Shown in pieces: positions 53 through 54,035 of a DNA stretch of 64,000 nt (the stretch's first letter is position 1; each line of letters begins with the position of its first letter). A program made the position numbers and the translations under genes. The stretch covers positions 52,564-116,563 of the IMG/VR virus record IMGVR_UViG_2802428818_000001, one strand, 5' to 3'. The notes under the pieces are model-generated. The model worked only from the letters and a program-made list of their open reading frames with translations, was not told where the DNA came from and ran no database searches. Origin of the DNA: a virus (Duplodnaviria; Heunggongvirae; Uroviricota; Caudoviricetes).

Positions 53-68
53 TTAGCGAAATCGCTAA
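53..68. promoter_or_regulatory. family A palindrome TTAGCGAAATCGCTAA
   Basis: perfect 16-bp palindrome about 65 nt upstream of kinase gene. Confidence 0.6.
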
Positions 69-100
69 TTCCCTACTTCCATAAATCGCTCCTGTGCAGT

Positions 101-120
101 AAGTAAATATTGATTGACTG
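101..120 (+). promoter_or_regulatory. family B motif AAGTAAATATTGATTGACTG
   Basis: 14 nt upstream of kinase ATG, sense orientation. Confidence 0.55.
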
Positions 121-133
121 CACAGGAGCAAAC

Positions 134-700
134 ATGAGCAATCCCACCCCCTACCCCAAACTGATCGCCCTTTGTGGCAACCCGACCTCGGGCAAATCGA
201 CCGCGGCCAACATCATCAACGACCTCTACGGCCACAAGCTCGCCGACGATGGCCTCGCCCTCCGCAAAATCGCTATGGATTACCTGGGACTGACCGCTGA
301 GCAGGTCTTCACCCAGGAAGGCAAGCTCGAATACGTCATGATCAACGGCCGGCGTTGGCAGGTTCGTGAGATCCTCGGCGAGATCGGCAATGCCTTCGAA
401 GAGAAGTTCGGTGGCGACATCATCCCGATTATGGCGCACAACGCCCAGCCCGAGGGGCAGTTCTCAGTCTTCGGGTCAGTGCGCCGCGAGCAGGGTCGCT
501 ACTGGAAGGAACAGGGCGCCCTCGTCCTCGAGATCATCAATCCCCTCGCCGGCCCGTCGCAATACGAGTTCGATACCTACAACCCGGCCTATGCCGATCA
601 TCAGATCCAGAACGATGGCCTGGCACGCGGCCTCTCGCCGGAAGAGGCTCGTCTCGATCTGATGGACAAGATCATTGCGATCGTGGGACCGGTGTTTTGA
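134..700 (+). CDS. P-loop nucleotide kinase, phage dNMP-kinase-like
   Basis: Walker A GNPTSGKST near N-terminus; AGGAG 8 nt upstream of ATG at 134; track ORF 110..700 trimmed. Confidence 0.5.
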   Translation: MSNPTPYPKLIALCGNPTSGKSTAANIINDLYGHKLADDGLALRKIAMDYLGLTAEQVFTQEGKLEYVMINGRRWQVREILGEIGNAFEEKFGGDIIPIMAHNAQPEGQFSVFGSVRREQGRYWKEQGALVLEIINPLAGPSQYEFDTYNPAYADHQIQNDGLARGLSPEEARLDLMDKIIAIVGPVF

Positions 701-738
701 TCCAGGTCTGGTATCAAAGCAAGAAGGTGGGCTCGCTG

Positions 739-1056
739 ATGATCAGCGTGCCTGCCTACCACAAAACGATCACTTTCACTGAGTTGTCGGACCCGGACGA
801 CCTGCATTCGCCCTTTAGCGAAAAGACGTTTTCGCTAATGACGCGCAACAATCTGGTCGACGAACGTGACCTGGCAGTGAGCGGCTGGGCGATCGAAACC
901 TATGTGACGCACCAGTTCGGCGTCGATCCGACGAAGTGCGAGATTCATCGGGACAATGCTGCTATGGGCTGGCGCGTCTCCTGGCGCATGATCGTCGCCG
1001 AGAACATCGACCAGTATGAATATCTGTTCGACAAGCGCGAGTTTATCGCCAACTGA
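739..1056 (+). CDS. hypothetical protein
   Basis: track ORF 697..1056 begins with TTG; ATG at 739 preceded by GAAGGTGGG. Confidence 0.45.
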   Translation: MISVPAYHKTITFTELSDPDDLHSPFSEKTFSLMTRNNLVDERDLAVSGWAIETYVTHQFGVDPTKCEIHRDNAAMGWRVSWRMIVAENIDQYEYLFDKREFIAN

Positions 1057-1065
1057 CTCTTGCAT

Positions 1066-1092
1066 GGCCGGTCACGCCGGCCTAAATAAATT
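1066..1092 (+). terminator. putative rho-independent terminator
   Basis: GGCCGG-TCACG-CCGGCC hairpin followed by TAAATAAATT. Confidence 0.5.
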
Positions 1093-1236
1093 CCCGGCGT
1101 GGCCCTAGAACTCTCTTCCGGCCCTGATCTCCCAAGATACCAGGACGGACGTGTCTAGTTCGTTGTTGACGCAAATGGGCCTCGCCACCCTCCTCTTCCA
1201 AATCCCGTAAAAGTTCGTTAACCATTAGGCGCTAGA

Positions 1237-1270
1237 GATTTAGCGATTTAACGACATAGGGATTTCGCGA
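1237..1270. promoter_or_regulatory. family A repeats (TTTAGCGATTTAACGA...GATTTCGCGAA) abutting parA start
   Basis: tandem/half-site copies immediately 5' of parA ATG. Confidence 0.55.
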
Positions 1271-1915
1271 ATGCCAACAATTATCTCATGTCTCTCCCAG
1301 AAGGGCGGCGTCGGCAAATCAACGCTGGCCCGGCTCCTAGCGCGCACCTACGCATCGGCCGACTGGTCGGTGAAGATCTGCGACTTCAACGTCAATCAGC
1401 TCACCTCGACCGATTGGGTAGCGATTCGCATGCAGGCCGGCGTAGAGCCACAGATCGATGCGCAGCCGATGACATCGACCAAGAAGCTGAAGGGCGAGCC
1501 CTACGACCTCTTGGTGATCGACGGCAAGCCGGACAGCGACCAGACTTCGCTCGAGGCTGCCCGGATCTCCGATCTCGTCGTCATACCGACCGGGCTGTCG
1601 GTCGATGACCTGAAGCCGCAGGCAGGCTTCGGCAATGAGCTGGTTGCGAAGGGCGTGCCGCGCGAGCGCATCATCTTCGTCCTCAACAAGACCACGGAGA
1701 GCGACGCGGCGACCCGCGAGGCCATCATGTTCATTCAGGCGCAGGGCTTCCAGGTGGCCGACACCGACATTTCGACCAAGAACGGCTACATGCTTGCCCA
1801 GAACGTCGGGCTTTCGATCGCCGAGACGCGCTATCCGTCGCTGAATGACCGGGCCGACACGCTGGCAGCCGAGCTCGTCGCCAAACTCAATTCCATCACC
1901 GAGGTAGCCGCATGA
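1271..1915 (+). CDS. parA: ParA/Soj-family partition ATPase
   Basis: deviant Walker A KGGVGKST, 214 aa, family A palindrome immediately upstream. Confidence 0.85.
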   Translation: MPTIISCLSQKGGVGKSTLARLLARTYASADWSVKICDFNVNQLTSTDWVAIRMQAGVEPQIDAQPMTSTKKLKGEPYDLLVIDGKPDSDQTSLEAARISDLVVIPTGLSVDDLKPQAGFGNELVAKGVPRERIIFVLNKTTESDAATREAIMFIQAQGFQVADTDISTKNGYMLAQNVGLSIAETRYPSLNDRADTLAAELVAKLNSITEVAA

Positions 1916-2190
1916 GAAAAGCCGTAGTCACCACCGCAGCCCAGCCAACCAAGGCCGAGGTTCCAAAGAAACCAGGCAAGGGTGGTATGCAGTATCTCGC
2001 GGCCCTCGACACCGAGAAGAAGGTCGAAGCCGACAACATGAAGGGCGAGGTGAAGCTGCGCGACCTGAACTTCAAGGTCGATCCGGACTTTCACACGAAA
2101 TTCAAGATGACGGCGACGGCTTCCGGCAAGAGCATGAAGGAGCTGCTCGAGGAGTGCTTCGCAGCCTGGATACACGCCAGACGCGGATAA
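1912..2190 (+). CDS. ribbon-helix-helix DNA-binding protein (ParG/CopG-like partner of ParA)
   Basis: ATGA overlap with parA stop; Lys/Pro-rich N-tail then LNFKVDPDFHTKFKMTA...SMKELLEECF RHH-like C-terminus. Confidence 0.55.
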   Translation: MRKAVVTTAAQPTKAEVPKKPGKGGMQYLAALDTEKKVEADNMKGEVKLRDLNFKVDPDFHTKFKMTATASGKSMKELLEECFAAWIHARRG

Positions 2191-2194
2191 CGAA

Positions 2195-2226
2195 AAGGGC
2201 GGTCGAAACCGCCCTTTCTTCATTTC
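2195..2226 (+). terminator. rho-independent terminator after par cassette (possibly bidirectional)
   Basis: AAGGGCGG-TCGAAA-CCGCCCTT then TCTTCATTT. Confidence 0.7.
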
Positions 2227-2230
2227 GTGA

Positions 2231-2246
2231 TTTAGCGAAATCGCTA
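2231..2246. promoter_or_regulatory. family A palindrome TTTAGCGAAATCGCTA
   Basis: between RHH gene terminator and convergent membrane-protein gene. Confidence 0.55.
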
Positions 2247-2465
2247 CCAACTAAGATCGAACTTCCAGCCGTGCGTCTCGCGCGGATCGATATAGCCGCC
2301 CAGCAGCGACAGGATGATCACCAGGGCGAGCACGACGACGAAGGGCACGCCGACGGCAAACAGGCTGAAGCCGATCATCAGCGCCAGGACGACCAGCAGG
2401 ATGATAACGGCGACGCGGATCACGTCGGCGAGGAATTTACGCAGGACAAACTTGAACTTTTCCAC
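2244..2465 (-). CDS. small membrane protein (2 predicted TM helices)
   Basis: hydrophobic stretches; GTG start with AAGGAG 7 nt upstream (track ORF 2244..2495 trimmed). Confidence 0.45.
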   Translation of the reverse strand: MEKFKFVLRKFLADVIRVAVIILLVVLALMIGFSLFAVGVPFVVVLALVIILSLLGGYIDPRETHGWKFDLSW

Positions 2466-2475
2466 GGGTAGCTCC

Positions 2476-2943
2476 TTAGAGGTTGTGGGCATCAATGAGA
2501 TTGAGAGCGCTCAGAGGAGCGCCGCAAAAGACGTCGAGGGCAATGGCTGCCTCGACAGCTTGAACCGCGTCAGCGCCCATCTGGATGGCGCCTAGCGCGT
2601 ATTTGCGGCCGGAGCCGATGGTGAATGTGTCACCGGTCAGCGGGCCGGCTGCGAAGTAGGCATCCGAGAACATGAAAACCTCGCCATCAGGCTTCACCAG
2701 GATAGCGGTGAGGCAAGGCTCGCCCGGCACCAGGTCGTCATCGCGAGACGCGCCGCGCTCGACCCACTTGCGGAACTCCTCGGCCAGGCCGACGACGTTC
2801 GTGGTGATGCCGAGCAGAGAGCCCGCGAACGGACCCTCCTTGATGCGATGGATCTTCTGCTTATTGCCGATCGGGTGCGTCGAGCCCGAATAGGCGCGGC
2901 TGTCGGCAGCCATGACGCCCTGATGGTAGACGACAACGCTCAC
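2476..2943 (-). CDS. HslV/proteasome-beta-like Ntn hydrolase
   Basis: MSVVVYHQGVMAADSRAYSGS...FAGSLLGITTN...IGSGRKYALGA resembles HslV TTIVSVRRNG...GFAGGTAD...IGSGG. Confidence 0.45.
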   Translation of the reverse strand: MSVVVYHQGVMAADSRAYSGSTHPIGNKQKIHRIKEGPFAGSLLGITTNVVGLAEEFRKWVERGASRDDDLVPGEPCLTAILVKPDGEVFMFSDAYFAAGPLTGDTFTIGSGRKYALGAIQMGADAVQAVEAAIALDVFCGAPLSALNLIDAHNL

Positions 2944-3281
2944 TGGCTGTCCTCGGGCAGGGCGATGCGCTGCGGCTGGAAGATGCCGCGGTTGATCAGC
3001 ATGAAGGCCACCTGCAGGTAGGTCATGCCGGTCGCGATGAAGCGCTGGTCGTATTTCTGCGGCCCGGCTGCCTTCAGCTCGTCGACCAGGCGCAGCACAC
3101 GCTCCTCGAGCTCCTTGGAGCGGTTGACCATGGCGACGTTCTCCTCGCTCTGGCTCTGGTAGCCCTTGACCGGCAGACCGGAATGCTTGCTTTCGAGCTT
3201 GGCCGCGGTGAACGTGCCGGCGAGCGGGATGCCTTCCAGCGGAAAGCCGAAAGGCGGGGAGGGGGCTTTGTCATCAGACAT
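2940..3281 (-). CDS. hypothetical protein
   Basis: AAGGAAAT SD before ATG; family A half-sites just upstream; coupled (ATGA) to downstream gene. Confidence 0.55.
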   Translation of the reverse strand: MSDDKAPSPPFGFPLEGIPLAGTFTAAKLESKHSGLPVKGYQSQSEENVAMVNRSKELEERVLRLVDELKAAGPQKYDQRFIATGMTYLQVAFMLINRGIFQPQRIALPEDSQ

Positions 3282-3292
3282 AGGGATTTCCT

Positions 3293-3319
3293 TATTTAGC
3301 GAAAGGGCGATTTAGCGAT
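3293..3319. promoter_or_regulatory. family A half-site direct repeats ATTTAGCGA x2
   Basis: upstream of 3281 gene SD. Confidence 0.5.
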
Positions 3320-4044
3320 CAATCGTCAATGCGATTGCCGACCGGGCCGTAGCGGAAGAGGCGGCTCTTGGTAGGGGTAAAGGGCAGTTCCCCGAGGAAG
3401 GGGTTCGAAACATTGGCGCCGAGCGCTTCAGCGACCGCATTGCGCACGAAGGTCGAAATATCCGTCGGCGCTTCGCCGTTGACGCTAATGTTGATCGTCG
3501 GCAGCACAGCCTCGCCGGCACGCTCACCGACAACGCTGTCAGGTTTAGCCTCGCCACCCGTCGCGAGATCACCCTGGCGCGTTGCCTCACAGAAGTCGCA
3601 GGCGCAGGCAGCCTGTTCGCTCTTGTTCGTCCAGTCTTCGGCCTTGTAGAGCGGGTTGATCAGCTCGACGTCCTCATCGTCGGCTTCCACCTCTTGCTGC
3701 TCTTCGCGTCCGACCTGACGACCCGCCTCGAAGGCTGCGTCGATCGATGCAGAGACCTTTTCGAGGTGCTCAGGGTAGGGGATGACGTTCGGCTCGACAT
3801 GCGTGACAGCAACGAGCTCGCCTTCACCCGTGGCAAACTCGTCCTGACGAAGCGTCAAAGCGGTCAGACGATAGGTGAGGCTGGTGCCCGCATCGTCCAC
3901 GATGGTGTGATTCTGTCCGATCCCAACGAGCTCATACGGATTGAGGTAGAAGTATGCGTGCAGCGGCGCAGAGACGAAATGCTTGGGCACGCCAGAGCCG
4001 CCCGCATAGAGGACTGCGCCGCTGGCTGGGAAATTGATCTTCAT
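3319..4044 (-). CDS. hypothetical protein
   Basis: 241-aa ORF with typical high-GC codon usage; family B motif upstream at about 4096-4118. Confidence 0.55.
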   Translation of the reverse strand: MKINFPASGAVLYAGGSGVPKHFVSAPLHAYFYLNPYELVGIGQNHTIVDDAGTSLTYRLTALTLRQDEFATGEGELVAVTHVEPNVIPYPEHLEKVSASIDAAFEAGRQVGREEQQEVEADDEDVELINPLYKAEDWTNKSEQAACACDFCEATRQGDLATGGEAKPDSVVGERAGEAVLPTINISVNGEAPTDISTFVRNAVAEALGANVSNPFLGELPFTPTKSRLFRYGPVGNRIDD

Positions 4045-4095
4045 GGAGATTGGATCCTCGAATGTTGGAATCTCAGGACATTATCCGGCTCGTAG

Positions 4096-4118
4096 CAGTC
4101 AGTCAATATTGATTGATC
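4096..4118. promoter_or_regulatory. family B CAGTCAGTCAATATTGATTGATC
   Basis: intergenic, upstream of 4044 gene (minus). Confidence 0.5.
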
Positions 4119-4454
4119 AAAATTGGGGATGGGTAGTCGGGAATTTGGGGATCTGGGCTCCGGGGCAGGGAAGCCGTGAGTTATAAGGTTTTGGCCGGAA
4201 GATTATAACCGACTACCCAGGTCAACATGTCCGTCCCGGTGAGGCACGAGGAGAGGTAGTCCAGGCCGGGATTTGCTCAGGCAGCAGGCGGCATCATGCC
4301 CAGCACACGCGAAAATCTCTAAGACTTCGATCGCTTCACAATTCAACACATGCACACTGACACGACGTTGCGCGAGGGATCGATCGAGCGTCTTTCGTGA
4401 GCAATGCAGCGCGCAAGCGTCTATGCGCTTGCATGAGCGTCTATGTGTCAATGC

Positions 4455-4476
4455 GAGTAAATCAGTATTGACTTAT
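4455..4476 (+). promoter_or_regulatory. family B variant GAGTAAATCAGTATTGACTTAT
   Basis: upstream of low-GC plus-strand unit. Confidence 0.4.
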
Positions 4477-4492
4477 ACATACATCAAAAATA

Positions 4493-4516
4493 ATTCGCGA
4501 TTTAGCGATTTAGCTA
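4493..4516. promoter_or_regulatory. family A ATTCGCGATTTAGCGATTTAGCTA
   Basis: about 80 nt upstream of 4596 gene. Confidence 0.5.
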
Positions 4517-4595
4517 TTGCATGACGTCGCGAACTAGTGTCTAAAGATCATGTCAACAACGACACTAGACAACAACACAGAAAGAGAGTTCTACA

Positions 4596-5162
4596 ATGAC
4601 TAAAGCAATCAACGCATACGCACTGTCTCTCTCTGCTCGCTACGATGCAGAGCTCAAGAATGAAAAGTCTGCAAACTCGTTAAACTTCATTTCGAAGTGC
4701 GCGCTTGTAGTATCGCAAGAGAAAGTCGCTGCAATGCTCGCAGCATGCGAAGTCAAGACTGACTTCGCACAAGACAGTGTGCAAGCAAATAGCGCGTTCT
4801 GCATGAAAGCACTTGAGAATTGCGCGCATATTCTTGAGTTCGCAGTTGACGCTCGCAACGTCGACAAATTGAAGTCGAACGTCGAAGAAACGCTTCGCAC
4901 TTTGATCAACTTCAAGAAGAACAATGAAGTCTTCAAAGCAAGCGACATTGAAATCGCGCTTGATAAAAACATCAAAGTCGCGAAAGAGCGCGCGCACTTG
5001 TATTATCGTCGTCGCGACGTGTTTTCTTCTGCAAAGCGTCATGCATCGATGAACATGCGCGCGCTTGTTGCTTTGAACATTCTCAAAGCAACGTCGAAAG
5101 ACTGCTACACAGTCAACGATAACGAGATTGTGCAGAAAATCGAAGCGCGTCTTAGCGCGTAA
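4596..5162 (+). CDS. hypothetical protein (low-GC island)
   Basis: 188-aa helical Ala/Lys/Glu-rich ORF in about 47% GC segment; opposite-strand ORFs there look spurious (Cys/Arg-rich). Confidence 0.5.
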   Translation: MTKAINAYALSLSARYDAELKNEKSANSLNFISKCALVVSQEKVAAMLAACEVKTDFAQDSVQANSAFCMKALENCAHILEFAVDARNVDKLKSNVEETLRTLINFKKNNEVFKASDIEIALDKNIKVAKERAHLYYRRRDVFSSAKRHASMNMRALVALNILKATSKDCYTVNDNEIVQKIEARLSA

Positions 5163-5239
5163 GATAGTCAATCAATCTTGATTTAGCTAGCGCGTGAGAG
5201 CGCGCTAGCAGTCGCAACAATCAACACAATCGAGACGTT

Positions 5240-5398
5240 CATGTTTATTCTGTATCTTCGCATAGTTGCAGCTCTGTCTAACACATATAGAGCGAACGCT
5301 GAATTGCAGCGCGCATTGCGCAAGCGTCAGAGTGCGCGCAAGTCTGCGAAGCGCGTCAGAGAGCAACGTCGTGCGATTGTGTCACGTTACAATTGAGA
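5240..5398 (+). CDS. small basic ORF (about 52 aa)
   Basis: read by eye (MFILYLRIVAALSNTYRANAELQRALRKRQSARK...); below ORF-track size cutoff; coordinates approximate. Confidence 0.2.
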
Positions 5399-5407
5399 GC
5401 TAGACAC

Positions 5408-5602
5408 ATGAGCAAGAGCTATAGCAAAGCACGCGTATCACTGACACAGCGCGAAATGCGCGAACGTGCGCAACGACGCGAGTTTAAGACGCGCAACGCG
5501 ACGACTGACAGTGTCGAATTGCTTGATAGACGTTTCGACTATCAGCAGATCGACATATACGAAATGCTGAATATGCGCGAAGAAACGCGCTATAGCGAAT
5601 AG
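5408..5602 (+). CDS. small basic protein
   Basis: track ORF 5393..5602 trimmed to ATG; followed by strong terminator hairpin. Confidence 0.3.
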   Translation: MSKSYSKARVSLTQREMRERAQRREFKTRNATTDSVELLDRRFDYQQIDIYEMLNMREETRYSE

Positions 5603-5623
5603 TCGAAATCGCTAAAATGCTAA
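5597..5623. promoter_or_regulatory. family A variant GTCGAAATCGCTAAAATGCTAA
   Basis: just after 5602 stop. Confidence 0.4.
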
Positions 5624-5626
5624 GTT

Positions 5627-5656
5627 AGAGCGCACTAATACAGTGCGCTCTTATTG
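5627..5656 (+). terminator. rho-independent terminator ending low-GC unit
   Basis: AGAGCGCACT-AATAC-AGTGCGCTCT perfect 10-bp stem then TTATTG. Confidence 0.65.
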
Positions 5657-5883
5657 CGTCGCACGTAATGTAGCGTGCGCTAAAGTAGCATCGACTTGCA
5701 AAGCGATCGCTAAGAGGCGAAATCTCTAGGCGCAGCGAGGGACCAGCCGGAGGATGGCAAGCCATGGAGCGGGATACCTCGGTGCCTGGAAATATAAGCC
5801 TTGGTTCTCCATGGCGAGGCCCAGAGACCGAAACACCGGCGAGTAGGCGGCTCGCCGGTGTGATCGTTGGGACGGAGGCTTCC

Positions 5884-6067
5884 TTTCTAGCCGGAGATCT
5901 TGATCATGACACAGACTGCGATGACGGCGCAGACGAATACGATGATCGCGATGAAGGAGGCGGTGTCCTTTGCGAGCTGCAACGTCTGCGAGGCGAAGTG
6001 CGACTGCCGCGGCGTCATTTCCTTGATGTGATAGACGGTGGTCGGCGCCGGGATGATGGTCTGCATT
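5884..6067 (-). CDS. small tail-anchored membrane protein (about 59 aa)
   Basis: by-eye ORF MQTIIPAPTT...FIAIIVFVCAVIAVCVMIKISG; GGAG 9 nt upstream; GTCAACAACGAAC box in leader; coordinates approximate. Confidence 0.35.
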
Positions 6068-6100
6068 GTCTGAACTCCGTTCGTTGTTGACGCTTCTGAG

Positions 6101-6124
6101 TTTAGCGAAATAGCGATTTAGCGC
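6101..6124. promoter_or_regulatory. family A TTTAGCGAAATAGCGATTTAGCGC
   Basis: upstream of small membrane-protein gene (minus). Confidence 0.55.
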
Positions 6125-6157
6125 AATCTGGCATGACTGCGCTAAACACTGGCGATG

Positions 6158-6463
6158 TTAGGCGTCGAACTCGACGGTGAACTCGGTCAGCTCGTCGAAG
6201 GCGTCGGCGGGAGAGGCAGAAGCATCGAGAGCGTAGTAGGCGCGCTTGAAGGAGCGCATGAACGCGGCGAGCACGGCAGGTGCATAGTCGCACTGCTGAG
6301 TGATCAGCTTGGTCTCGTCGCGGATAGCATAGCGGTTATACGAGAACTCGGCGTTGATGGAATAGATCTCGTGCTTGCGGTCGCTCTTGTGCTCGACGGT
6401 CGCGGTGAGGGTGTCGGAGTTGACGTCGTAGGTCGCGGTGATGATGGTGAAGGTGTTCTGCAA
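6158..6463 (-). CDS. hypothetical protein
   Basis: 101 aa; TTG start after GAAAGACACGCAC leader also seen before the 12457 gene; family A site upstream. Confidence 0.5.
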   Translation of the reverse strand: MQNTFTIITATYDVNSDTLTATVEHKSDRKHEIYSINAEFSYNRYAIRDETKLITQQCDYAPAVLAAFMRSFKRAYYALDASASPADAFDELTEFTVEFDA

Positions 6464-6492
6464 GTGCGTGTCTTTCGTTTGCGTTGCTTACA

Positions 6493-6517
6493 TTTAGCAA
6501 TTTAGCGATTTCGCTAA
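6493..6517. promoter_or_regulatory. family A TTTAGCAATTTAGCGATTTCGCTAA
   Basis: upstream of 6463 gene (minus). Confidence 0.55.
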
Positions 6518-6644
6518 GGCACGCAAGACGGCGACGCACGGCGACGCTAGGGCCTGGGGCAGGCAGGACCACCTGGCCTCACCATGGCCTGCCGGGGGTT
6601 GGACCAGGGTCGCCACGGGCGGCTCCCGCGCCATGGCATGCACC

Positions 6645-6682
6645 TACCCAGAGAAAAAGCGCCACGGGTGTGACGCTCTCTC
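6645..6682 (-). terminator. putative terminator after the 6688 gene
   Basis: minus strand AGCGTCAC-ACCC-GTGGCGCT then TTTTT. Confidence 0.45.
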
Positions 6683-6687
6683 CTTGG

Positions 6688-6960
6688 TTAGCGATCGAAC
6701 TCGCCGGCGCGTGCTGCGTAGGCTGCTTCACGATCGCCAACGAATGCGAAGTCGTGGGCGAGCTCGGCGCGACGTTCTGCCCGGCGCTCAGCCTCGGCGT
6801 CATATCCCTTGTCGAGATAGTCAGCCTTGACCATCTGCGTCTGCAGTCGCCACTCACGCGGCGACAGATTTAAGGCTTGCTCGCCTTCTGGCACCTTGGT
6901 GATCGCGCCGCCCTTTGCGAGAAAAGCGGCGATGAGTGCGTCTGCGTTCTGCTTTGCCAT
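6688..6960 (-). CDS. hypothetical protein
   Basis: track ORF trimmed to MAKQNADALIAAF...; GGAAGG SD; GTCAACAACGAAC box in leader. Confidence 0.55.
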   Translation of the reverse strand: MAKQNADALIAAFLAKGGAITKVPEGEQALNLSPREWRLQTQMVKADYLDKGYDAEAERRAERRAELAHDFAFVGDREAAYAARAGEFDR

Positions 6961-7220
6961 GAGAGTGAACCTTCCGTTCGTTGTTGACACTCAGACAGTC
7001 GCACGACGCAGCTAGGCGCTCACTCTGGCGCGACCTGGCGCACGACGGCGAGGTAAGGGTGAAGGCGCTGGCCGGAGCGGCACGCCATGGCAGTCCACGG
7101 CAGGCTATGGCGAAAAAGACCGTGGTTCCTGAAAGGATCATCCACGGTCGGTCCCTTGGACCCCACCGGTTCCCCAACTTTTATGTGCGGGTGCCTTGGT
7201 TCCCCATGGATCGGCCGTCA

Positions 7221-48477: not shown

Positions 48478-48488
48478 AATGTCTCCTG

Positions 48489-48563: not shown

Positions 48564-48572
48564 AAACAAGGG

Positions 48573-48600
48573 AAATGAAAAGCCGCCCGAAGGCGGCTCC
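48573..48600 (-). terminator. rho-independent terminator after 48605 gene
   Basis: minus strand GCCGCC-TTCG-GGCGGC then TTTTCATTT. Confidence 0.7.
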
Positions 48601-48604
48601 GGTG

Positions 48605-49018: not shown

Positions 49019-49095
49019 TATCTTCCTCTCTCAATATGTTAGGTGCGCAGGGCACGTCCACAAATGGGTCATGTGCGGCAGGAACACAAGCTCCG

Positions 49096-49494
49096 CTACT
49101 TGATTTTCACCGCACCGGGAATGTGGGTGAAATACTTGATGGGAAGGTAGCGCTGCGCGGCTCCACCGCGGCGCTCGAAATTCAGGAACTTGGTTTTGTT
49201 CCGATCCATGAAGTTCTCAATCCGGGTGACGTAAATGTCGTTGTTCTGTTTGACCCTTACGCCGACCCAGACGATCTTCATCAGGCGCAGCTCGGTGATG
49301 GTTTCCTCATCGAGCGCCCAGGATGCGGTCTCTTTACGCAGCGCATCCGAATTGCACTTCTCGCCGAACCGGAAGATCTGATCCAGCTTCCGGGCGGCGA
49401 GATACACGTTCCTATTGGCAAAGTGATAGATGTGGCCGTAGATTCGACGACCTCTGCGGACGACCGTTGTCGGCACCTTGGGCTTGCGCGCCAT
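49096..49494 (-). CDS. GIY-YIG-like endonuclease (tentative)
   Basis: RIYGHIYHFANRNVYLAARKL loosely matches GIY-x10-YIG; trimmed to MARKPKVPTT... Confidence 0.35.
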   Translation of the reverse strand: MARKPKVPTTVVRRGRRIYGHIYHFANRNVYLAARKLDQIFRFGEKCNSDALRKETASWALDEETITELRLMKIVWVGVRVKQNNDIYVTRIENFMDRNKTKFLNFERRGGAAQRYLPIKYFTHIPGAVKIK

Positions 49495-49924
49495 TTTCAA
49501 AGCCTCTCCATTCGTAAAGACCCTGCGCGCCCTTGATCGGGATCGGATGCTCAAGAGCTTCCGGCTTGGTCATGCGCCAGGCGTAACCGCCTTCCTTGAA
49601 CCAGCCATAAGCCTTTTCCTCGCGCGTGATATCGGAGAGAAACTCCTCGTCGATCAGCTCGTAGCTGTCGAGGATGGCCGTGCCGAGCAGATAGCCACGC
49701 GGCAGCTCTTCGAAGTCAGGCATGTCGAGCATCTGATAGAAGAACTGGAACTCTTCCTCGTTGAACGCTGCCATCTGTTTCGGCAGGACGCTTTTCGTCG
49801 AGGCGATACCAATTCTCTGACCGACGACTGCCTTGGGCGGCGCCCAGGTCCGTGTCTCAAAGATTTTGAACCCGCGGACAATAAGCGGTGCCCACGGGTT
49901 CCAGACTGAAATCACTTTCATCAA
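49412..49924 (-). CDS. ASCH-domain protein
   Basis: MKVISVWNPWAPLIVRGFKIFETRTW typical ASCH N-terminus; 3' end overlaps next gene. Confidence 0.55.
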   Translation of the reverse strand: MMKVISVWNPWAPLIVRGFKIFETRTWAPPKAVVGQRIGIASTKSVLPKQMAAFNEEEFQFFYQMLDMPDFEELPRGYLLGTAILDSYELIDEEFLSDITREEKAYGWFKEGGYAWRMTKPEALEHPIPIKGAQGLYEWRGFENGAQAQGADNGRPQRSSNLRPHLSLCQ

Positions 49925-49990
49925 TGCTCTCCGATAATCTTCAAATCAGAATAGACGTCATATCATCGGAGTTGCATTGAGCGGAAGAAA

Positions 49991-50011
49991 TTTTCGCTAA
50001 ATCGCGAAATT
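49991..50011. promoter_or_regulatory. family A TTTTCGCTAAATCGCGAAATT
   Basis: about 80 nt upstream of ASCH gene, just after recombinase stop. Confidence 0.5.
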
Positions 50012-51110
50012 ACGCCGCGATCGTTGCATCCTCGTCGACCTCGGTGTCAACCTCAGCAACGACGGGCGGCTCATAGTTCGCCGGCAGGAGATCCATGAGC
50101 TTCTTAAAGCCCTTGTCGCCTTCACCTTCGATCTGACGTGCGAGCGTCTCCTTAGCGATCTGCTTGCCGTCAAAGTTGACGAAGCCCGGCTTGCCCTTGG
50201 TCAGAAGCCCGTTCGTCTCGAGGAACTCAACCATTGAGCGTTGACGGTCGAACTTGCCGGTGCCGTCTTCCTGGAACATAAAGCGCCAGGTCGCCGTCTG
50301 GAACGGACGCGCGATCTTGTTCTTCATGTATTTGCCGGTCACTTCCATGCCGATGATGTCGGTGCCCTTCTTGATTTGGGCAGCCGAGAGCCAGAGGCGC
50401 TGCGAGAAGTAGAACGCCGGAGCATTACCACCGGTCGTCTTGCGCGGATCACCAAACTTGACATTCAAATCCTGACGGATCTGGTTGAGGAAGATAGCGC
50501 AAATGCCAAGCTCCTCGACATGCTGCGCGAAGGCCGGGAACGCATTCGACGTTGCACGCGCCAGCGCCGTGTTGTCGTTCATATTGCGGTCTTCCAGCGA
50601 CTTCACGCCGATAGCCTTGCCGTTCTTCATTTCGTAGTAGGCCGACTGCGGCACCATCGAGGCCAGGCTATCGAAAACCCAGCAGATCGGCGCGTCCTTC
50701 TTGATCAGCTTGTTCTTGCGGACATGAGTGGCCGCGACGACGCAGAGCTGCAAGCCTTCCTCGAAGGTCTTCGGCGTCTTAAAGACGAAGCGGCCAGGCG
50801 TGGTGTCGAGGCCGAGGCGCGGCGCCAGACGCAGCGAGAACGAGCGCTCGAAGTCCTCGAAACCCGCAATGCCGCCCATTTGCTGTGCACCGGCCATTGC
50901 GGCCGTTGCCAGCGCAGTCTTGCCGGACGACGGTGGGCCGGCGATTTCGATCATGCGGCCGACCGGGAACGCACCGAGTTCCCAGTTCGAATTGGAAGCG
51001 TGGTCGAGGGGCGGAAAGCCCGACGGAAGGAACTGGGAAACAGTCACTTCCTCGTCGTTTGCACCGATCGCGCCGGCGAGCGATGCTGCGATATCTGCTG
51101 CTGATGCCAT
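50010..51110 (-). CDS. RecA/UvsX-like recombinase
   Basis: Walker A GPPSSGKT; AAGGAGAAAGAC ATG; trimmed from 50010..51188. Confidence 0.85.
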   Translation of the reverse strand: MASAADIAASLAGAIGANDEEVTVSQFLPSGFPPLDHASNSNWELGAFPVGRMIEIAGPPSSGKTALATAAMAGAQQMGGIAGFEDFERSFSLRLAPRLGLDTTPGRFVFKTPKTFEEGLQLCVVAATHVRKNKLIKKDAPICWVFDSLASMVPQSAYYEMKNGKAIGVKSLEDRNMNDNTALARATSNAFPAFAQHVEELGICAIFLNQIRQDLNVKFGDPRKTTGGNAPAFYFSQRLWLSAAQIKKGTDIIGMEVTGKYMKNKIARPFQTATWRFMFQEDGTGKFDRQRSMVEFLETNGLLTKGKPGFVNFDGKQIAKETLARQIEGEGDKGFKKLMDLLPANYEPPVVAEVDTEVDEDATIAA

Positions 51111-51120
51111 GTCTTTCTCC

Positions 51121-51705
51121 TTACTTGTCATCAATGAAGTCAACGTCGTCCAGAAGGTCGCTGCCTGTGTCAGCAGGCGGCAAACCATCCTCGTCTAAAT
51201 CAGTATTGATTGACTGAACTGGACGTGGAGCAACGGCTGCTGCGGCCTTGGTCAGGCGCCCGCCGATGGCCTTCGCCAAAGTCTTGCCATCCATTTTCGA
51301 GGTATCGATGGGACCAGCCGGAAGAACCGGGGCTCGGGCTTCGATTTGCTCGGAACCTGGAAAGGTGATGCGCTCTTCCGGCGCCAGTCCCTTCCGCGGC
51401 GACTGATTATACCAAGTGACCTGGTATTTCGCCGGCATTTCAATGCTGTCGAGCGAGAAGTCGCCGTTTGTGGCCTTGGCGACGTCGCGGACCACGTCGA
51501 TTTTTTCCCAGATCTTCTTGATCGTCTCGGACAGGAAATACTGCGCCTTGGCGTAGTCGTCCTTCGAGATATCGTCGCCGTGCTTTTCAGCAACGCGCAG
51601 CAGGTCGCCGTAGCTCTTGCCGATCTTCTGGATGGCAGCCTCGAGCGCCTTCTTGGCTTCAGGCTTGGGATCAGCCGCCTTGGGCGTAGTGATCAGGTCA
51701 GACAA
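51121..51705 (-). CDS. hypothetical protein with acidic C-terminal tail (DDVDFIDDK)
   Basis: 194 aa; family-B-like sequence lies inside its 3' end. Confidence 0.5.
   Translation of the reverse strand: MSDLITTPKAADPKPEAKKALEAAIQKIGKSYGDLLRVAEKHGDDISKDDYAKAQYFLSETIKKIWEKIDVVRDVAKATNGDFSLDSIEMPAKYQVTWYNQSPRKGLAPEERITFPGSEQIEARAPVLPAGPIDTSKMDGKTLAKAIGGRLTKAAAAVAPRPVQSINTDLDEDGLPPADTGSDLLDDVDFIDDK
51196..51220 (-). promoter_or_regulatory. family B-like (CTAAATCAGTATTGATTGACTGAAC) inside coding sequence
   Basis: lies in 3' end of 51121..51705 gene, about 85 nt upstream of recombinase start. Confidence 0.35.
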
Positions 51706-51898
51706 AACGGCGTCCTTTCATCTTGTCGTAGGCCGAGGTCAGAAACACTGCCGGCCAGAAAATGAACCAGAAGAAGACGGCGAACGCGATACGACGCCCG
51801 TCACCTCCCGTAACGATGGGCTTAATGATGTAGAACGTGAAAACTACCATCACGAGGTAGATCCACGCTGCACTCAGGGTGATGATTGATGCCGTCAC
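51698..51898 (-). CDS. small membrane protein (2 TM)
   Basis: 66 aa hydrophobic. Confidence 0.45.
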   Translation of the reverse strand: MTASIITLSAAWIYLVMVVFTFYIIKPIVTGGDGRRIAFAVFFWFIFWPAVFLTSAYDKMKGRRFV

Positions 51899-52851
51899 GC
51901 GGCGAGCTCCTCTTGCAGGTGGTGGAAGGCAGGGAAGACCGAGATCCAGGGCTCCAGATCCTTTGTGATCGAGCGGAACATCAGCCGGTTGCAGAACGTC
52001 TTGAAGCGCTCGATGTCCGGCGTGCCTGTGTCGACGCGCAGATTGACCGGCTCCGGCCGGAGCTTCGTGCGCAGATCCATGAGCTTCAGGTTGCGCTGAT
52101 AGATCATCTGCTTTTCCTCGGACTCTCCGAAGTCACGGAACTTCTTCGGCACGGTCTTTGGATCGAGCGTCTTGTCGATCAGCATGTTGGAGAAGTTCGA
52201 CACCGAGACGTATTCCTTCAGGAACGCGATCGCGCCTTTGTCGCCGATACCACCGACGCCGGATATACCGTCACCTTCGTCACCCCAAAGGCACTTCATT
52301 TCGACGAACGCCTCGAAGCTTTCGAGGTCGTAACCGAGCGCCGGCAGCATGTCGGCAGCCTTCATGATCTTGCGGTCCTGGATCGGATCGAGCCAGATGA
52401 TGTTGGGGTTGACGAGCTGCACCCAGTCTTTGTCGCCGGAGACGAGCACGACCTTGCCGCCCTTGGCAGCGTAGCGATCGCCCATGATTGCGGCGAGATC
52501 GTCAGCTTCCATGTTCGAAGCGCGGACCTGCGGAACGCCCAAGAGCTGCATCGCCTTCTTGATCGCCGGGATCTGACCTTCTGCGATCTTCTTCATTTCG
52601 GCTGCTTTGACGGCCGACGGCGTGTCTTGCTTCTTGCGATTGGATTTGTAGTCGGGAAAGTCCATGTAGCGCCAGCTTGCACCATCCCAGAGCACCGCGG
52701 GCTTTGCGGTCGGGTAGGTGGCGATCAGCTTCCGGACGATCTTCACGAAATGGTAGATGGCTTGAACCTGCGTCTCACCGACCTTCAGCGGCTTCGCGTT
52801 GTTGGCTGCATGAGCAATATTCATGCCGTCGATCAGGAGATAACGCTGCAT
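51895..52851 (-). CDS. 5'-3' exonuclease / flap endonuclease (T4 RNase H-like)
   Basis: MQRYLLIDGMNIAH PIN-like N-terminus with acidic clusters. Confidence 0.85.
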   Translation of the reverse strand: MQRYLLIDGMNIAHAANNAKPLKVGETQVQAIYHFVKIVRKLIATYPTAKPAVLWDGASWRYMDFPDYKSNRKKQDTPSAVKAAEMKKIAEGQIPAIKKAMQLLGVPQVRASNMEADDLAAIMGDRYAAKGGKVVLVSGDKDWVQLVNPNIIWLDPIQDRKIMKAADMLPALGYDLESFEAFVEMKCLWGDEGDGISGVGGIGDKGAIAFLKEYVSVSNFSNMLIDKTLDPKTVPKKFRDFGESEEKQMIYQRNLKLMDLRTKLRPEPVNLRVDTGTPDIERFKTFCNRLMFRSITKDLEPWISVFPAFHHLQEELAA

Positions 52852-53002
52852 ATCAAAAACCTTTGTATTTCAGGGGAGGGGCGTCAGGAGATCGCAAGTG
52901 CCAAGCGAGCAAAGGAGGGCGCAACCTCCTGACGAACAGGCCCGGCAGCGCGACTTGCCGGGCCAGAGATCACTGCGCACAAGCGCGCGGCGCAGTGACG
53001 AC

Positions 53003-53959
53003 TTAGATGGTGTCCAGGTCAGCGAGGACGTCATCGAGGTCGTTGTCGTCAAGTTCGACGACAGGCTCTTCGACAACAGCCGGCTTGGACGAAGCCTTCT
53101 GAGTGGTGGTCGCAGCGGCCTTCGTGACCGGTGCGGCTTCTTCAGTGTCGACGTCGAACGGTGCTTCGTCGAGGTCGGCTGCGTCAGCAAGTGCGTCCGC
53201 ATCGACGTCCGGATCAACGGTTGCTGCACGCGAGGTCAGAGCGGCAGTCGGGGTCTTGTTGCCGAGCTTCGGCAACGAAACCTGGGCGACCTGGGCGATG
53301 AAGTTCAGCGCCTTCTGCTCATCACCGCGGAAGAACTCCTTGTTGATGTGGCCGATGAGGTCGTGGCATTCCTTGAGCTGCTGCGGCGTGACCGGAGCAT
53401 GTGCCTTGCCGGCAGCGACGTTGACGGCGTATTCGGTGTTGAGACCCTTGCCGGTGCGGGTGATGGAGATATCCATACCTTCGCTCGGCGACAGAATGTC
53501 TTCGCCTTCTTCGGCATACTGCTGAACGATGCCGAGGATGGAGCCGAACGTGCCGGGCGTGAGTTCGAGGATCTGCACCTTGTCCGGATCAGTCGAGCCC
53601 TTCGAGCGATCGAGAACGTTCAGAAGAACGGTCTTACGAGCCTTCCAGCTCTTGTAGAGCTCCTTGGACTCTTCATCGATCGCCGCGCTCATGGCCTGGT
53701 CGATCGCGGTGTCGATCGCGCACGGCTGATCGAAGCAGATGCTCGGGCATCCAACAACGGCAATCGGCTTGCCCTTGCCTTCAACTTCCGGCTTGATCCA
53801 GTGAACGCCGAGGTCGGCCCAGAACTGAGCGTTCTGATCGGGCACGAGGATGCGGTAGCGGTTAACGCCTTCCTTCGGCTTGATGCGTTCGCCAGTGGAA
53901 CGCTGATACTTGTTTGCGCCTTGCGAGACGAGCTTCTGCAGTGCGGGAGAAAGTGCCAT
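53003..53959 (-). CDS. gp32-like single-stranded DNA-binding protein
   Basis: His/Cys zinc-site-like HW...VGCPSICFDQPC and long acidic C-terminal tail. Confidence 0.55.
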   Translation of the reverse strand: MALSPALQKLVSQGANKYQRSTGERIKPKEGVNRYRILVPDQNAQFWADLGVHWIKPEVEGKGKPIAVVGCPSICFDQPCAIDTAIDQAMSAAIDEESKELYKSWKARKTVLLNVLDRSKGSTDPDKVQILELTPGTFGSILGIVQQYAEEGEDILSPSEGMDISITRTGKGLNTEYAVNVAAGKAHAPVTPQQLKECHDLIGHINKEFFRGDEQKALNFIAQVAQVSLPKLGNKTPTAALTSRAATVDPDVDADALADAADLDEAPFDVDTEEAAPVTKAAATTTQKASSKPAVVEEPVVELDDNDLDDVLADLDTI

Positions 53960-54010
53960 TTCGAGTTTTCCTTTTCGAGGCTGGTGCTTGTGAGCTTTGT
54001 CGGTTCGTAG

Positions 54011-54035
54011 TTAGCGATTTAGCGAAATCGCTAAT
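54011..54035. promoter_or_regulatory. family A TTAGCGATTTAGCGAAATCGCTAAT
   Basis: about 50 nt upstream of gp32-like gene. Confidence 0.55.

Follow-up and report, generated by a model that had tools for sequence, protein, structure and literature searches.

A type Ib ParA–RHH cassette and dispersed, phased 8-bp repeat arrays in a Rhizobium phage-plasmid: a putative centromere-binding protein with candidate operators

Related partition systems and the element

In the omega/delta/parS system of pSM19035 from Streptococcus pyogenes, one ribbon-helix-helix (RHH) dimer binds each short repeat, direct and inverted repeats form contiguous arrays at several separate places, and omega is both the centromere-binding protein, as the ParB of the delta ATPase, and a multi-operon regulator whose heptad arrays overlap three promoters; its N-terminal tail activates the small ParA (PMC9499535). 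The parA–RHH locus analyzed here, which lies in a 64-kb window (the whole stretch of DNA that we analyzed), resembles this system in its RHH protein and in its contiguous arrays of direct and inverted repeats at several separate places, and we propose a like role for the N-terminal tail. It differs in that the unit is 8 bp (WWTMGCKA) rather than 7 bp (WATCACW), that arrays hold 2–5 units rather than 7–10, and that 11–13 arrays extend across >50 kb of a ~116-kb phage-plasmid, whereas pSM19035 has six parS sites at three promoters. In addition, the host is an alphaproteobacterium, and the genes adjoining the arrays include those for phage replication, recombination, and anti-defence. A phage-plasmid with several partition-protein sites (SopB, IR1–4) instead of one centromere array is known in N15 (PMC7205306), but that system is type Ia, with an HTH ParB (SopB) and single palindromic sites, whereas ours, of type Ib, pairs an RHH protein with phased tandem units. 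ParG, of the type Ib ParG/ParF/parH system of TP228, binds 4-bp boxes with 4-bp AT spacers, and its dimers are cooperative on adjacent units (PMC3130281), as we propose here; by our arithmetic from that paper the ParG site has a period of 8 bp, the length of the unit described here. As in TP228, the RHH domain stands behind a flexible N-terminal tail, with ParG as its nearest structure and profile, and the ParA resembles ParF over its full length. In contrast, the core here is 6-bp pseudo-palindromic where the ParG box is ACTC, and ParG has one ~100-bp centromere and one operator by its own operon, whereas the sites here are dispersed through the genome. Two further proteins offer parallels without kinship. 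MetJ is an RHH repressor that acts on tandem 8-bp pseudo-palindromic met-boxes (2–5 per operator), with one dimer per unit and contacts between neighbouring dimers; it is a chromosomal metabolic repressor that requires a co-repressor, and it has neither a ParA partner nor sequence kinship to the RHH protein here. In KorB/IncC of the IncP plasmid RK2, the partition protein is also a global regulator with about a dozen scattered operators, part of them at promoters and part well away from any; KorB is a ParB-family HTH protein with a 13-bp palindromic site and no homology to our RHH protein.

The window is part of an RHEph10/pLM21S1-type phage-plasmid of Rhizobium (~116 kb), and its RHH protein is identical to one on record from Rhizobium azibense. 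RHEph10 and its relatives were isolated as infective phages, and some members occur as circular plasmids of ~115–118 kb; an integrase is absent from RHEph10/pLM21S1-type members, and induction of pLM21S1 failed (PMC4447125). The element encodes a sigma factor and, outside the window, other DNA-binding proteins, namely two ParB/Srx-like proteins (their genes sit left of the helicase gene) and a second RHH protein and an HTH regulator beside repC.

The repeat unit and its arrays

The first-pass annotation had described a 16-bp palindrome repeated at about ten promoter-proximal sites. Its repetition is clear: in the 64-kb window, TTAGCGAAATCGCTAA with up to three mismatches matches 14 times where 0.50 are expected (100 shuffles gave at most 2), and TTAGCGA occurs 22 times against 6.1 expected. 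The unit, however, had to be redefined as an 8-bp repeat, WWT[A/C]GC[G/T]A, with a pseudo-palindromic 6-bp core, of which the 16-bp palindrome is an inverted pair (perfect at 53–68, 6502–6517, and 54019–54034, with one mismatch at 2232–2247). In a core scan of the window, start-to-start spacings were 8 bp for nine pairs (0.04 expected by chance), 16 bp for six, 24 bp for three, and 32 bp for one, and within 33 bp no other pairs occurred except those of one unrelated TCGCGA cluster at 60002, spaced 11 and 13 bp. A two-unit PWM scan returned eight arrays and no other match in 64 kb, even 3 bits under the top score of 30 shuffles; the arrays at 815–838, 3296–3318, and 5593–5615, in which the strong units lie 16 bp apart, came from the core scan. 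All ten sites listed earlier are real and in place, and one array (815–838) had been missed. The window thus holds 11 arrays of 2–5 units each, nine of them packed in 6.5 kb around par, and the complete genome of RHEph10 holds 13:

Array 1, 53..68: two inverted units, a perfect 16-mer; 65 nt 5' of a dNMP-kinase-like gene (134..700)
Array 2, 815..838: two good units around a degenerate one; within ORF 697..1056
Array 3, 1240..1270: four phased units, TTTAGCGA TTTAACGA CATAGGGA TTTCGCGA; directly next to the parA start codon; possible core centromere and operator for autoregulation
Array 4, 2232..2247: two inverted units; directly past the par terminator, between convergent genes
Array 5, 3296..3318: a degenerate unit flanked by two good ones; 14 nt 5' of a minus-strand Acb2/Tad1-hairpin gene (2940..3281)
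Array 6, 4494..4532: three contiguous units and one in phase; 63 nt 5' of a 188-aa gene that belongs to a low-GC island
Array 7, 5593..5615: three phased units; overlaps the 5393..5602 stop codon, where the low-GC island ends on its 3' side
Array 8, 6102..6124: three contiguous units; 35 nt 5' of a minus-strand 59-aa membrane-protein gene (5887..6066)
Array 9, 6494..6517: three contiguous units including a perfect 16-mer; 30 nt 5' of a minus-strand 101-aa gene (6158..6463)
Array 10, 49993..50008: two units; between a recA-like gene (50010..51188) and the ASCH gene, 71 nt 5' of the ASCH start
Array 11, 54011..54034: three contiguous units; 51 nt 5' of a minus-strand gp32-like SSB gene (53003..53959)

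The promoter-proximal placement holds for eight of the 11 arrays, which lie 0–71 nt 5' of a start codon, but not for the other three, two of which are at gene 3' ends (2232–2247 and 5593–5615) and one within a gene (815–838). On a crude GC3-based gene map, 9 out of 11 arrays are mostly non-coding (P ~2e-4), and no canonical sigma-70 promoter was found beside any of the 11. Some details of the surroundings were also recorded. Two arrays scored as coding; of these, array 9 lies in a doubtful ORF of 49 aa, and the corresponding RHEph10 region is annotated as intergenic; array 1 contains the stop codon of the preceding gene; and, read by eye, array 6 sits just 3' of TTGACT-N17-TAATTC and array 7 is followed by a stem-loop.

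Orthologous array positions are found in RHEph10, Pararhizobium p5, and N1_15 at ~77% nucleotide identity. Array 1 is kept in all three, and both arms of array 2 are kept in RHEph10 and N1_15 despite a protein that is only 39% identical. Every relative examined has an array where array 4 lies, and in B1VFA, pLM21S1, and X66 it is built of the motif of that lineage. Array 10 has its orthologue at 49596 in RHEph10, and array 11 aligns in register with three-unit arrays in RHEph10 (GCGA type) and pLM21S1 (GCTA type). One array of RHEph10 lies within a ParB-like gene.

The parA–RHH cassette and its covariation with the repeat

The cassette comprises the following features:

1271..1915, plus strand: parA, 214 aa, a deviant-Walker-A ATPase of type Ib size
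1912..2190, plus strand: RHH gene, 92 aa, candidate ParG/omega-like centromere-binding protein
2059..2082, plus strand: predicted DNA-reading beta-strand, codons 50–57 (R-D-L-N-F-K-V-D), aligning to the ParG beta-strand
2194..2217, plus strand: terminator-like stem-loop (tool-detected) that closes the parA–RHH operon

The parA product (GC3 of its gene, 0.83) matches Pfam AAA_31/CbiA, contains KGGVGKS, and has full-length matches to ParF (4dzz) and ParA (5u1g). The start of the RHH gene overlaps the parA stop (ATGA), and a homologous small RHH ORF (E < 1e-3) lies 3' of parA in about 75 of the 96 fetched loci. That the small protein after parA is an RHH protein, as had been suggested, is borne out by profile and fold, both of which place it closest to ParG. 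Its Pfam matches are all sub-threshold (ParG, 19.2 against a gathering cut-off of 21.4; Omega_Repress, 16 bits against 33.3; RHH_10), its profile finds ParG 1p94 as the top PDB match (E = 0.017; omega, E = 1.5), and Foldseek with the AF2 model again puts ParG on top (probability 0.99, E = 0.28), and nearly all the next hits are RHH proteins; these fold-search E-values are weak because the RHH domain is short. The model has two confident helices (pLDDT > 90) and a disordered tail (residues 1–50), which carries two conserved linear motifs, one basic and proline-rich, the other A-D/N-N-M/L.

We found that, across ~60 parA–RHH cassettes, the beta-strand residues covary with the repeat 5' of parA, N-x-K going with GCGA and T-x-N with GCTA. 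In the 100 nt 5' of parA, the 25 N-F-K loci classed by script have on average 3.8 GCGA-type and 0.1 AGCTA-type units, and the 14 T-F-N loci 0.4 and 3.4. GCGA-type units predominate in 26 of 27 N-F-K loci (the 25 plus two mis-binned loci) and AGCTA-type units (TAGCTA) in 13 of 14 T-F-N loci; these counts include related sequences, and the independent events are far fewer than the loci. At least two distinct clades of ParA have T-F-N, and several clades set apart by deep splits have N-F-K. Further switches pair S-F-S with CTGAAA or are seen as lineages with ACGAAA or GCCTAG; in each of these cases several arrays surround par. F54 is invariant, and N53 and K55, which covary with the DNA unit across loci, are the predicted specificity residues. 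The pairing of strand and repeat also recurs in distant company: Erwinia phage LS-2018a, which over the 8 kb compared has only parA–RHH in common with the window, carries the same D-L-N-F-K-V strand and ATTTAGCGAAAAAGCGA immediately 5' of parA, and L081, whose protein-level similarity is confined to parA, pairs N-F-K with AACGA units.

The switch extends over whole genomes. In pLM21S1 (T-F-N) there are 11 TAGCT/AGCTA arrays, phased at 8/16/24 bp, and the one 5' of the SSB gene aligns unit for unit with 54011–54034 of the window; all arrays of a genome change motif together, including the SSB array ~50 kb from par. Array position is kept across motif-changed lineages 5' of the kinase gene, parA, the gene after HslV, the ~190-aa plus-strand gene, and SSB. 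N1_15 and X66, both on R. phaseoli, have different motifs, and as judged from the sequences compared, the motif goes with the element and not with the host. The first-pass annotation had taken the arrays for a dispersed centromere, for operators of a global repressor, or for both, with the RHH protein as their binder; this choice of binder gains support from its fold, the covariation, the co-switch, and a motif that follows the element. A host factor was considered as the array binder as well, and the different motifs in phages of R. phaseoli ruled against it.

Partition, gene control, and competing explanations

From the computed repeats and phasing, conservation, RHH fold, covariation, and genome-wide co-switch, we infer binding, repression, and partition activity of the RHH protein, and a role for its tail. 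We consider it likely that the locus is a type Ib ParA/RHH partition system whose putative centromere-binding protein also acts on dispersed operators, as omega does in pSM19035. In this model, parA and the overlapping 92-aa gene would form the partition cassette, with the 92-aa product as a ParG/omega-like RHH centromere-binding protein. Each dimer would place its two-stranded beta-ribbon (residues 50–57) in the major groove of one 8-bp unit, where N53 and K55 would read the bases, and neighbouring dimers 8 bp apart would bind cooperatively, like ParG on parH and MetJ on met-boxes. The four-unit array at the parA start and the two-unit array past the terminator would together serve as autoregulatory operator and core centromere, and the disordered N-terminal tail would contact and activate ParA. 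The remaining nine arrays would be extra docking sites that co-regulate adjoining genes and enlarge the partition complex, comparable to omega at several pSM19035 promoters; the genes 14–71 nt 3' of most non-par arrays, and so the candidates for such control, are the dNMP-kinase-like and Acb2-like genes, two small-gene operons, the low-GC island, ASCH, and SSB. Alone, most arrays may not be functional centromeres, because they have only 2–3 contiguous units and omega needs at least four contiguous repeats to activate its ParA (PMC9499535).

Some of the same observations would suit a purely dispersed centromere, with the RHH protein on all arrays in a large or multi-point partition complex and regulation confined to par autoregulation: three arrays are not 5' of a gene start, nine lie within 6.5 kb around par, canonical promoters were not detected beside the arrays, and dispersed sites have a precedent in the four SopB sites of the phage-plasmid N15 (PMC7205306). 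We think this unlikely, since the arrays stay 5' of particular genes though the lineage motif has changed, which a structural role would not need; moreover, RHH partition proteins also control expression via promoter-overlapping sites, and arrays of 2–3 units would be too short for ParA activation by the pSM19035 standard (PMC9499535). It is likewise quite unlikely that the protein is a regulator only, that is, a global repressor of early or maintenance genes, with ParA–RHH of small or no importance for segregation, as might be the case in members with a lytic way of life. The eight arrays just 5' of start codons, the isolation of RHEph10 and relatives as infective phages, and the GO term of an orthologue in one source ('regulation of transcription') agree with such a role, but the pairing with a type Ib ParA is strictly conserved and translationally coupled in ~75 loci, and coupled pairing together with conserved tail motifs is a hallmark of ParA-activating centromere-binding proteins. 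In addition, those members that are circular plasmids of ~115–118 kb without an integrase (PMC4447125) therefore need active partition.

The remaining explanations assign the repeats to a different protein. If a ParB/Srx-like protein, the second small RHH protein, or the repC-side HTH regulator were the binder, the covariation would be indirect, through co-inheritance; such genes are present in RHEph10 and pLM21S1 and diverge between the same lineages, and the RHEph10 array inside a ParB-like gene would fit. We regard this as very unlikely, given that the Erwinia phage lacks the window's neighbour genes in the 8 kb compared and yet has the same beta-strand and a GCGA-type array 5' of parA, that L081 combines N-F-K with AACGA units while sharing parA alone, that the changing residues are those predicted to face DNA, and that a layout of phased 8-bp tandem repeats running both ways is characteristic of RHH proteins and not of HTH ParB proteins. 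The sigma factor of the element and the position of most arrays 5' of genes could also suggest promoter elements for a phage sigma factor, or sites for a host protein, instead of operators. This is highly improbable: the units vary in number and face either way, arrays also stand between convergent genes or within an ORF, the R. phaseoli phages differ in motif, and the Erwinia phage, sharing only parA–RHH over those 8 kb, has its GCGA-type array 5' of parA.

We therefore favour a partition protein that also acts on dispersed operators. With RHEph10 isolated as a phage and pLM21S1 non-inducible, the lifestyle in which par operates may be either that of a phage or that of a plasmid. By comparative evidence the arrays belong to this one RHH protein, which probably segregates the element and controls a gene set as well.

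Phased arrays of an 8-bp repeat

The first-pass annotation had described a 16-bp palindrome repeated at about ten promoter-proximal sites around the parA-RHH cassette. Allowing up to three mismatches on both strands, we found 14 matches to the 16-mer TTAGCGAAATCGCTAA against 0.50 expected (at most 2 in 100 shuffles), and the heptamer TTAGCGA occurred 22 times against 6.1 expected. When the sites are read in register, the true repeating unit is 8 bp, WWT[A/C]GC[G/T]A, most frequently in the forms TTTAGCGA and AATCGCTA. Because its 6-bp core is pseudo-palindromic, two units placed head to head give the 16-bp palindrome. We rejected the palindrome as the functional unit on the spacing histogram, in which the core T[AC]GC[GT]A recurs start to start at 8 bp (9 pairs, with 0.04 expected in shuffled sequence), 16 bp (6 pairs), 24 bp (3 pairs) and 32 bp (1 pair), indicating an 8-bp unit in arrays of two to five; many arrays consisting of direct repeats only likewise contradict it. 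The only other core pairs within 33 bp came from one unrelated TCGCGA cluster (60002-60031), which we excluded from the family for its intragenic position and its spacings of 11 and 13 bp.

In total, the window contains 11 arrays of two to five phased units each. In a two-unit position weight matrix scan of the 64 kb, 8 of the 11 scored higher than anything in 30 shuffles, and no other site did; three arrays, whose strong units lie 16 bp apart, come from the scan for the core.

Arrays in the window
53-68, array
815-838, array inside the ORF 697-1056 (core scan)
1240-1270, array of four units reaching the parA start codon
2232-2247, array of two units at a gene 3' end, after a tool-detected terminator
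3296-3318, array 14 nt from the start codon of the minus-strand Acb2/Tad1-hairpin gene (core scan)
4494-4532, array on one flank of a low-GC island
5593-5615, array at a gene 3' end, before a stem-loop read by eye, on the other flank of the low-GC island (core scan)
6102-6124, array
6494-6517, array overlapping only a doubtful 49-aa ORF
49993-50008, array
54011-54034, array, counterpart of the pLM21S1 array upstream of the SSB gene

All ten sites noted earlier are present, and the array at 815-838 had been missed. For eight of the 11 arrays, a start codon follows at a distance of 0-71 nt, and by a crude gene map nine fall largely in non-coding sequence (P about 2e-4). The earlier description as promoter-proximal thus fits these eight, and does not fit the two arrays at gene 3' ends or the one within an ORF.

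The parA-RHH cassette and its phage-plasmid family

The cassette has the anatomy of a type Ib partition system. Its parA gene (1271-1915) encodes a 214-aa deviant-Walker-A ATPase (KGGVGKS; Pfam AAA_31/CbiA), which falls in the size range of the small type Ib ParA proteins (~200-230 aa) and, like them, has no N-terminal HTH. Residues 4-191 align to ParF of TP228 (4dzz, 206 aa) and to ParA 5u1g, which we regard as full-length matches. The gene for the ribbon-helix-helix (RHH) protein (1912-2190) overlaps the parA stop by ATGA (1912-1915), as in a shared operon, and a homologous small ORF (E < 1e-3) directly follows parA in ~75 of 96 loci that encode related ParA proteins and were gathered by ParA alignment. 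A type Ia arrangement, with a large ParA followed by an HTH ParB and parS sites, was rejected on account of the small ParA and the RHH protein encoded after it; in the relatives, ParB/Srx-like genes lie ~2-4 kb from the par cassette on the other strand.

The 92-aa RHH protein is identical to a Rhizobium azibense protein on record. It scores below the gathering cut-offs of Pfam ParG (PF09274; 19.2 bits, E = 0.0014, cut-off 21.4) and Omega_Repress (PF07764; 16 bits, E = 0.015, cut-off 33.3), and just under that of RHH_10. Searched against solved structures, a 32-sequence profile found ParG (1p94) as the best match, with the whole RHH domain aligned (E = 0.017), and omega (2bnw) as the third (E = 1.5). 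In the AlphaFold (AF2) model, residues 1-50 form a disordered tail, which leads into an extended segment and then two helices (58-70 and 75-90) whose pLDDT exceeds 90. Compared with the PDB by Foldseek, this model matched ParG first (probability 0.99, E = 0.28), followed almost exclusively by RHH proteins (PutA, CopA, Arc, and FitA); the fold-search E-values are weak because the RHH domain has only ~40 residues. The monomer model, the profile, and Foldseek all give the ribbon-helix-helix fold of type Ib partners, supporting the earlier call of an RHH protein encoded after parA. The disordered tails of the family share two linear motifs, one basic and proline-rich near the N-terminus and the other A-D/N-N-M/L ~10 residues before the beta-strand, consistent with a possible role of the tail in ParA contact and ATPase stimulation. 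A set of homologues (P0020-P0032; ~158 aa, range 107-158) combines a D-L-N-F-K-V-D-P-D-F-H RHH domain with an extra N-terminal domain of ~70-90 aa, apparently a distinct architecture built around the shared DNA-reading module.

The first 8 kb of the window are ~77% identical to the Rhizobium phages RHEph10, RHph_N1_15/N1_10/N2_6, and Y2_11 (115-117 kb) and to the circular 115.6-kb plasmid p5 of Pararhizobium qamdonense. More distant relatives with the same gene order, all 117-122 kb, are the phages B1VFA and RHph_X66, plasmid pLM21S1 of Sinorhizobium, and Shinella and Methylobacterium plasmids; several relatives exist as circular plasmids of ~115-118 kb. The right part of the window carries a replication/recombination block (50010-51188, 51895-52851, 53003-53959, 55019-58432, and 59832-63674), whose RecA-like gene, 5'-3' exonuclease, and gp32-like SSB are backed by Pfam matches. 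Its putative DNA polymerase III alpha and CobS/CobT-like genes are assigned solely by ORF size and by synteny with RHEph10, in whose annotation a sigma-factor gene stands between the two. The RepC and the second RHH/HTH pair of the relatives lie beyond the window. A published study treats pLM21S1 and RHEph10 as the archetypes of a plasmid-like prophage group (PMC4447125; see also PMC7969092). Both have RepC-based replication along with a partition module, and pLM21S1 lacks an integrase (PMC4447125), which, together with the circular plasmids among the relatives, indirectly suggests that the cassette may stabilize a low-copy replicon. Of the replication and partition modules, that study mentions only the presence, and in the literature searched we found no description of the repeats or of a centromere or operator in this Rhizobiaceae-centred family, nor any paper joining phage-plasmids, ribbon-helix-helix proteins, ParA, and centromeres.

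The predicted reader of the repeats

Four independent comparative lines (conservation, covariation, modularity, and genome-wide co-switching) point to the RHH protein as the predicted binder of the arrays. Arrays occur at orthologous positions in RHEph10, p5, and N1_15, and the intragenic array keeps both arms even though the protein of its host ORF is only 39% identical. The predicted DNA-reading beta-strand of the window protein is R50-D-L-N53-F54-K55-V-D57, and since F54 is invariant, N53 and K55 are predicted to face the DNA. We classed the homologues by residues 53-54-55. Within 100 nt upstream of parA, the 25 loci classed by script as N-F-K have on average 3.8 GCGA-type and 0.1 AGCTA-type units, and the 14 T-F-N loci 0.4 and 3.4, respectively. 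GCGA-type units are in the majority at 26 of 27 N-F-K loci (the 25 plus the two mis-binned loci L006 and L040; exception L062) and AGCTA-type units at 13 of 14 T-F-N loci (exception L013), counted over loci without phylogenetic correction. In the ParA tree, T-F-N is found in two or more distinct clades, and N-F-K is spread over several that are deeply separated. An S-F-S strand goes with its own 8-bp-phased unit, CTGAAA, and further lineages have 8-bp-phased units of [A/G]ACGAAA or GCCTAG; for each of these variants, the unit stands in several arrays around par. The repeats flanking the parA-RHH operon (four units at 1240-1270 and two at 2232-2247) covary with the beta-strand residues predicted to recognize them.

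The switch extends over whole genomes. The complete genome of RHEph10 (N-F-K) has 13 arrays and that of pLM21S1 (T-F-N) has 11 TAGCT/AGCTA arrays, all phased at 8, 16, or 24 bp. The pLM21S1 array upstream of the SSB gene aligns unit for unit with the window array at 54011-54034, with GCGA changed to GCTA in every unit.

Other proteins could in principle read the arrays, namely the ParB/Srx-like proteins of the family or the second RHH and HTH proteins adjacent to repC, all encoded outside the window. In Erwinia phage LS-2018a, parA and the RHH gene alone have counterparts in the first 8 kb of the window (8 kb compared); the encoded RHH protein has the same D-L-N-F-K-V strand, and ATTTAGCGAAAAAGCGA stands directly upstream of the phage's parA, a pattern that argues against both of these readers. 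A host factor was rejected as well: N1_15 (TTAGCGA) and X66 (TAGCTA) are both phages of Rhizobium phaseoli, and their different motifs on one host species indicate that the reader is not a host protein.

Proposed centromere and operators, and the genes beside the arrays

The genes adjacent to the arrays are a dNMP-kinase-like gene, the Acb2/Tad1-hairpin gene, two small-gene operons, the low-GC island, an ASCH gene, and the gp32-like SSB. RHEph10 has further arrays upstream of an ABC-ATPase gene, inside a ParB-like gene (gp085; 106383-106412, locus L099), and just inside an annotated ligase gene (gp037; 31510-31523, locus L097), the last ~30 nt inside the annotated start; the counterparts of the gp085 and gp037 regions in this element lie outside the window. 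The minus-strand gene 2940-3281 encodes a 113-aa protein whose match to the Acb2/Tad1 hairpin domain of Pfam (PF24729; E = 2.7e-13) exceeds the cut-off, making the protein a candidate anti-CBASS/anti-Thoeris nucleotide sponge; the gene is followed by an HslV-like peptidase gene (2476-2943). The low-GC island (~4400-5700; 50% GC over 4001-6000 against ~58% elsewhere) is bracketed by the arrays 4494-4532 and 5593-5615. Its plus-strand ORFs, of 188 aa (4596-5162) and ~64-69 aa, have no Pfam or PHROG match, and p5, B1VFA, pLM21S1, and the Shinella plasmid each have a plus-strand gene of ~188-200 aa at the corresponding position.

The window also contains four perfect copies of a second repeat, TTCGTTGTTGAC (1159-1170, 6080-6091, 6977-6988, and 23648-23659), which gives 17 matches at up to two mismatches where 4.7 are expected. 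The copies at 6080 and 6977 read as the reverse complement, GTCAACAACGAACGGAG, and closely precede minus-strand start codons; the copy at 1159 lies between the ORF 697-1056 and parA and is kept in RHEph10 and p5. The 90-aa product of the minus-strand gene 6688-6960 weakly resembles the SutA RNA-polymerase-binding domain (PF20661, E = 1.2e-5), scoring 25 bits where the cut-off is 29.3.

A scan of positions 1-7200 gave no canonical sigma-70 promoters overlapping arrays, and -35/-10 hexamers placed by eye were inconsistent from site to site. Array positions upstream of start codons are conserved among the relatives, which would fit a global regulator that is omega-like in function, though not by homology, and may act at the promoters of several operons. 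A GTTAACC motif (1205-1215) lies ~25-35 nt upstream of the parA-proximal array and may be part of the par promoter; it is kept in five of six aligned relatives, across the N-F-K and T-F-N lineages, and is shifted in the Shinella row. In the T-F-N relatives, it is preceded by TAGACT.

What the computations show is the phased repeats, an RHH fold, covariation between strand and unit, and conservation of array positions; from these we propose that one RHH dimer would bind each 8-bp unit and that neighbouring dimers would bind cooperatively, by analogy with ParG, whose cooperative dimers bind ACTC boxes separated by 4-bp AT spacers (PMC3130281), and with omega, whose cooperative dimers bind direct or inverted 7-bp heptads (PMC9499535). 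The array at 1240-1270 spans the region of the ribosome-binding site up to the parA start codon, and the operon is flanked by this array and the two-unit array after the terminator (2232-2247); these two arrays would form the autoregulatory operator and core centromere. Omega already binds tightly to two repeats, and its activation of ParA takes at least four contiguous ones (PMC9499535), which by analogy suggests that arrays of two to three units are operators or auxiliary docking sites, not autonomous centromeres. That arrays are kept immediately upstream of the same genes in motif-switched lineages favours a regulatory role, and the three arrays away from gene starts favour an additional structural or centromere role.

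Mechanistically, nothing in the present system is unprecedented. Its closest functional counterpart is omega/delta/parS of pSM19035 and its closest structural one ParG/ParF/parH of TP228. The KorB operators of RK2 are likewise dispersed and are bound by an HTH ParB protein. Dispersed sites are also found for SopB of the phage-plasmid N15, but SopB is again an HTH ParB protein (PMC7205306). The present system differs from the known ones in its 8-bp unit with a pseudo-palindromic core, in its very short arrays (two to five units), 11-13 in number, that reach over more than 50 kb of phage genome, and in the kind of genes beside them.

Under this model, 11-13 sites over a phage genome of more than 100 kb would be served by one type Ib RHH partition protein, linking plasmid segregation to the control of phage genes, including an anti-defence gene. 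We also entertain, as a speculative and rather improbable extension, that the ParG-like RHH protein is the master coordinator of the plasmid state in this widespread family of alphaproteobacterial phage-plasmids (~110-120 kb). Were this true, about a dozen short phased arrays would couple segregation to the silencing of replication and recombination genes (SSB, ASCH, and ligase), of an Acb2-like anti-defence gene, and of further early operons; the lytic switch would be directly affected whenever the partition protein is lost or titrated away; and the family would provide a readable RHH code (N-x-K/GCGA, T-x-N/GCTA, and S-x-S/CTGAAA). The family offers a natural experiment in RHH recognition, in which two beta-strand residues have repeatedly changed along with a single base of the 8-bp unit, each time throughout the genome, and this pairing of residues and base could be of use in designing orthogonal RHH-operator pairs. 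Phage-plasmids are common and, to our knowledge, little is known of their upkeep outside P1 and N15; our findings provide a concrete, testable model of maintenance and gene control in a large, little-studied phage-plasmid family.
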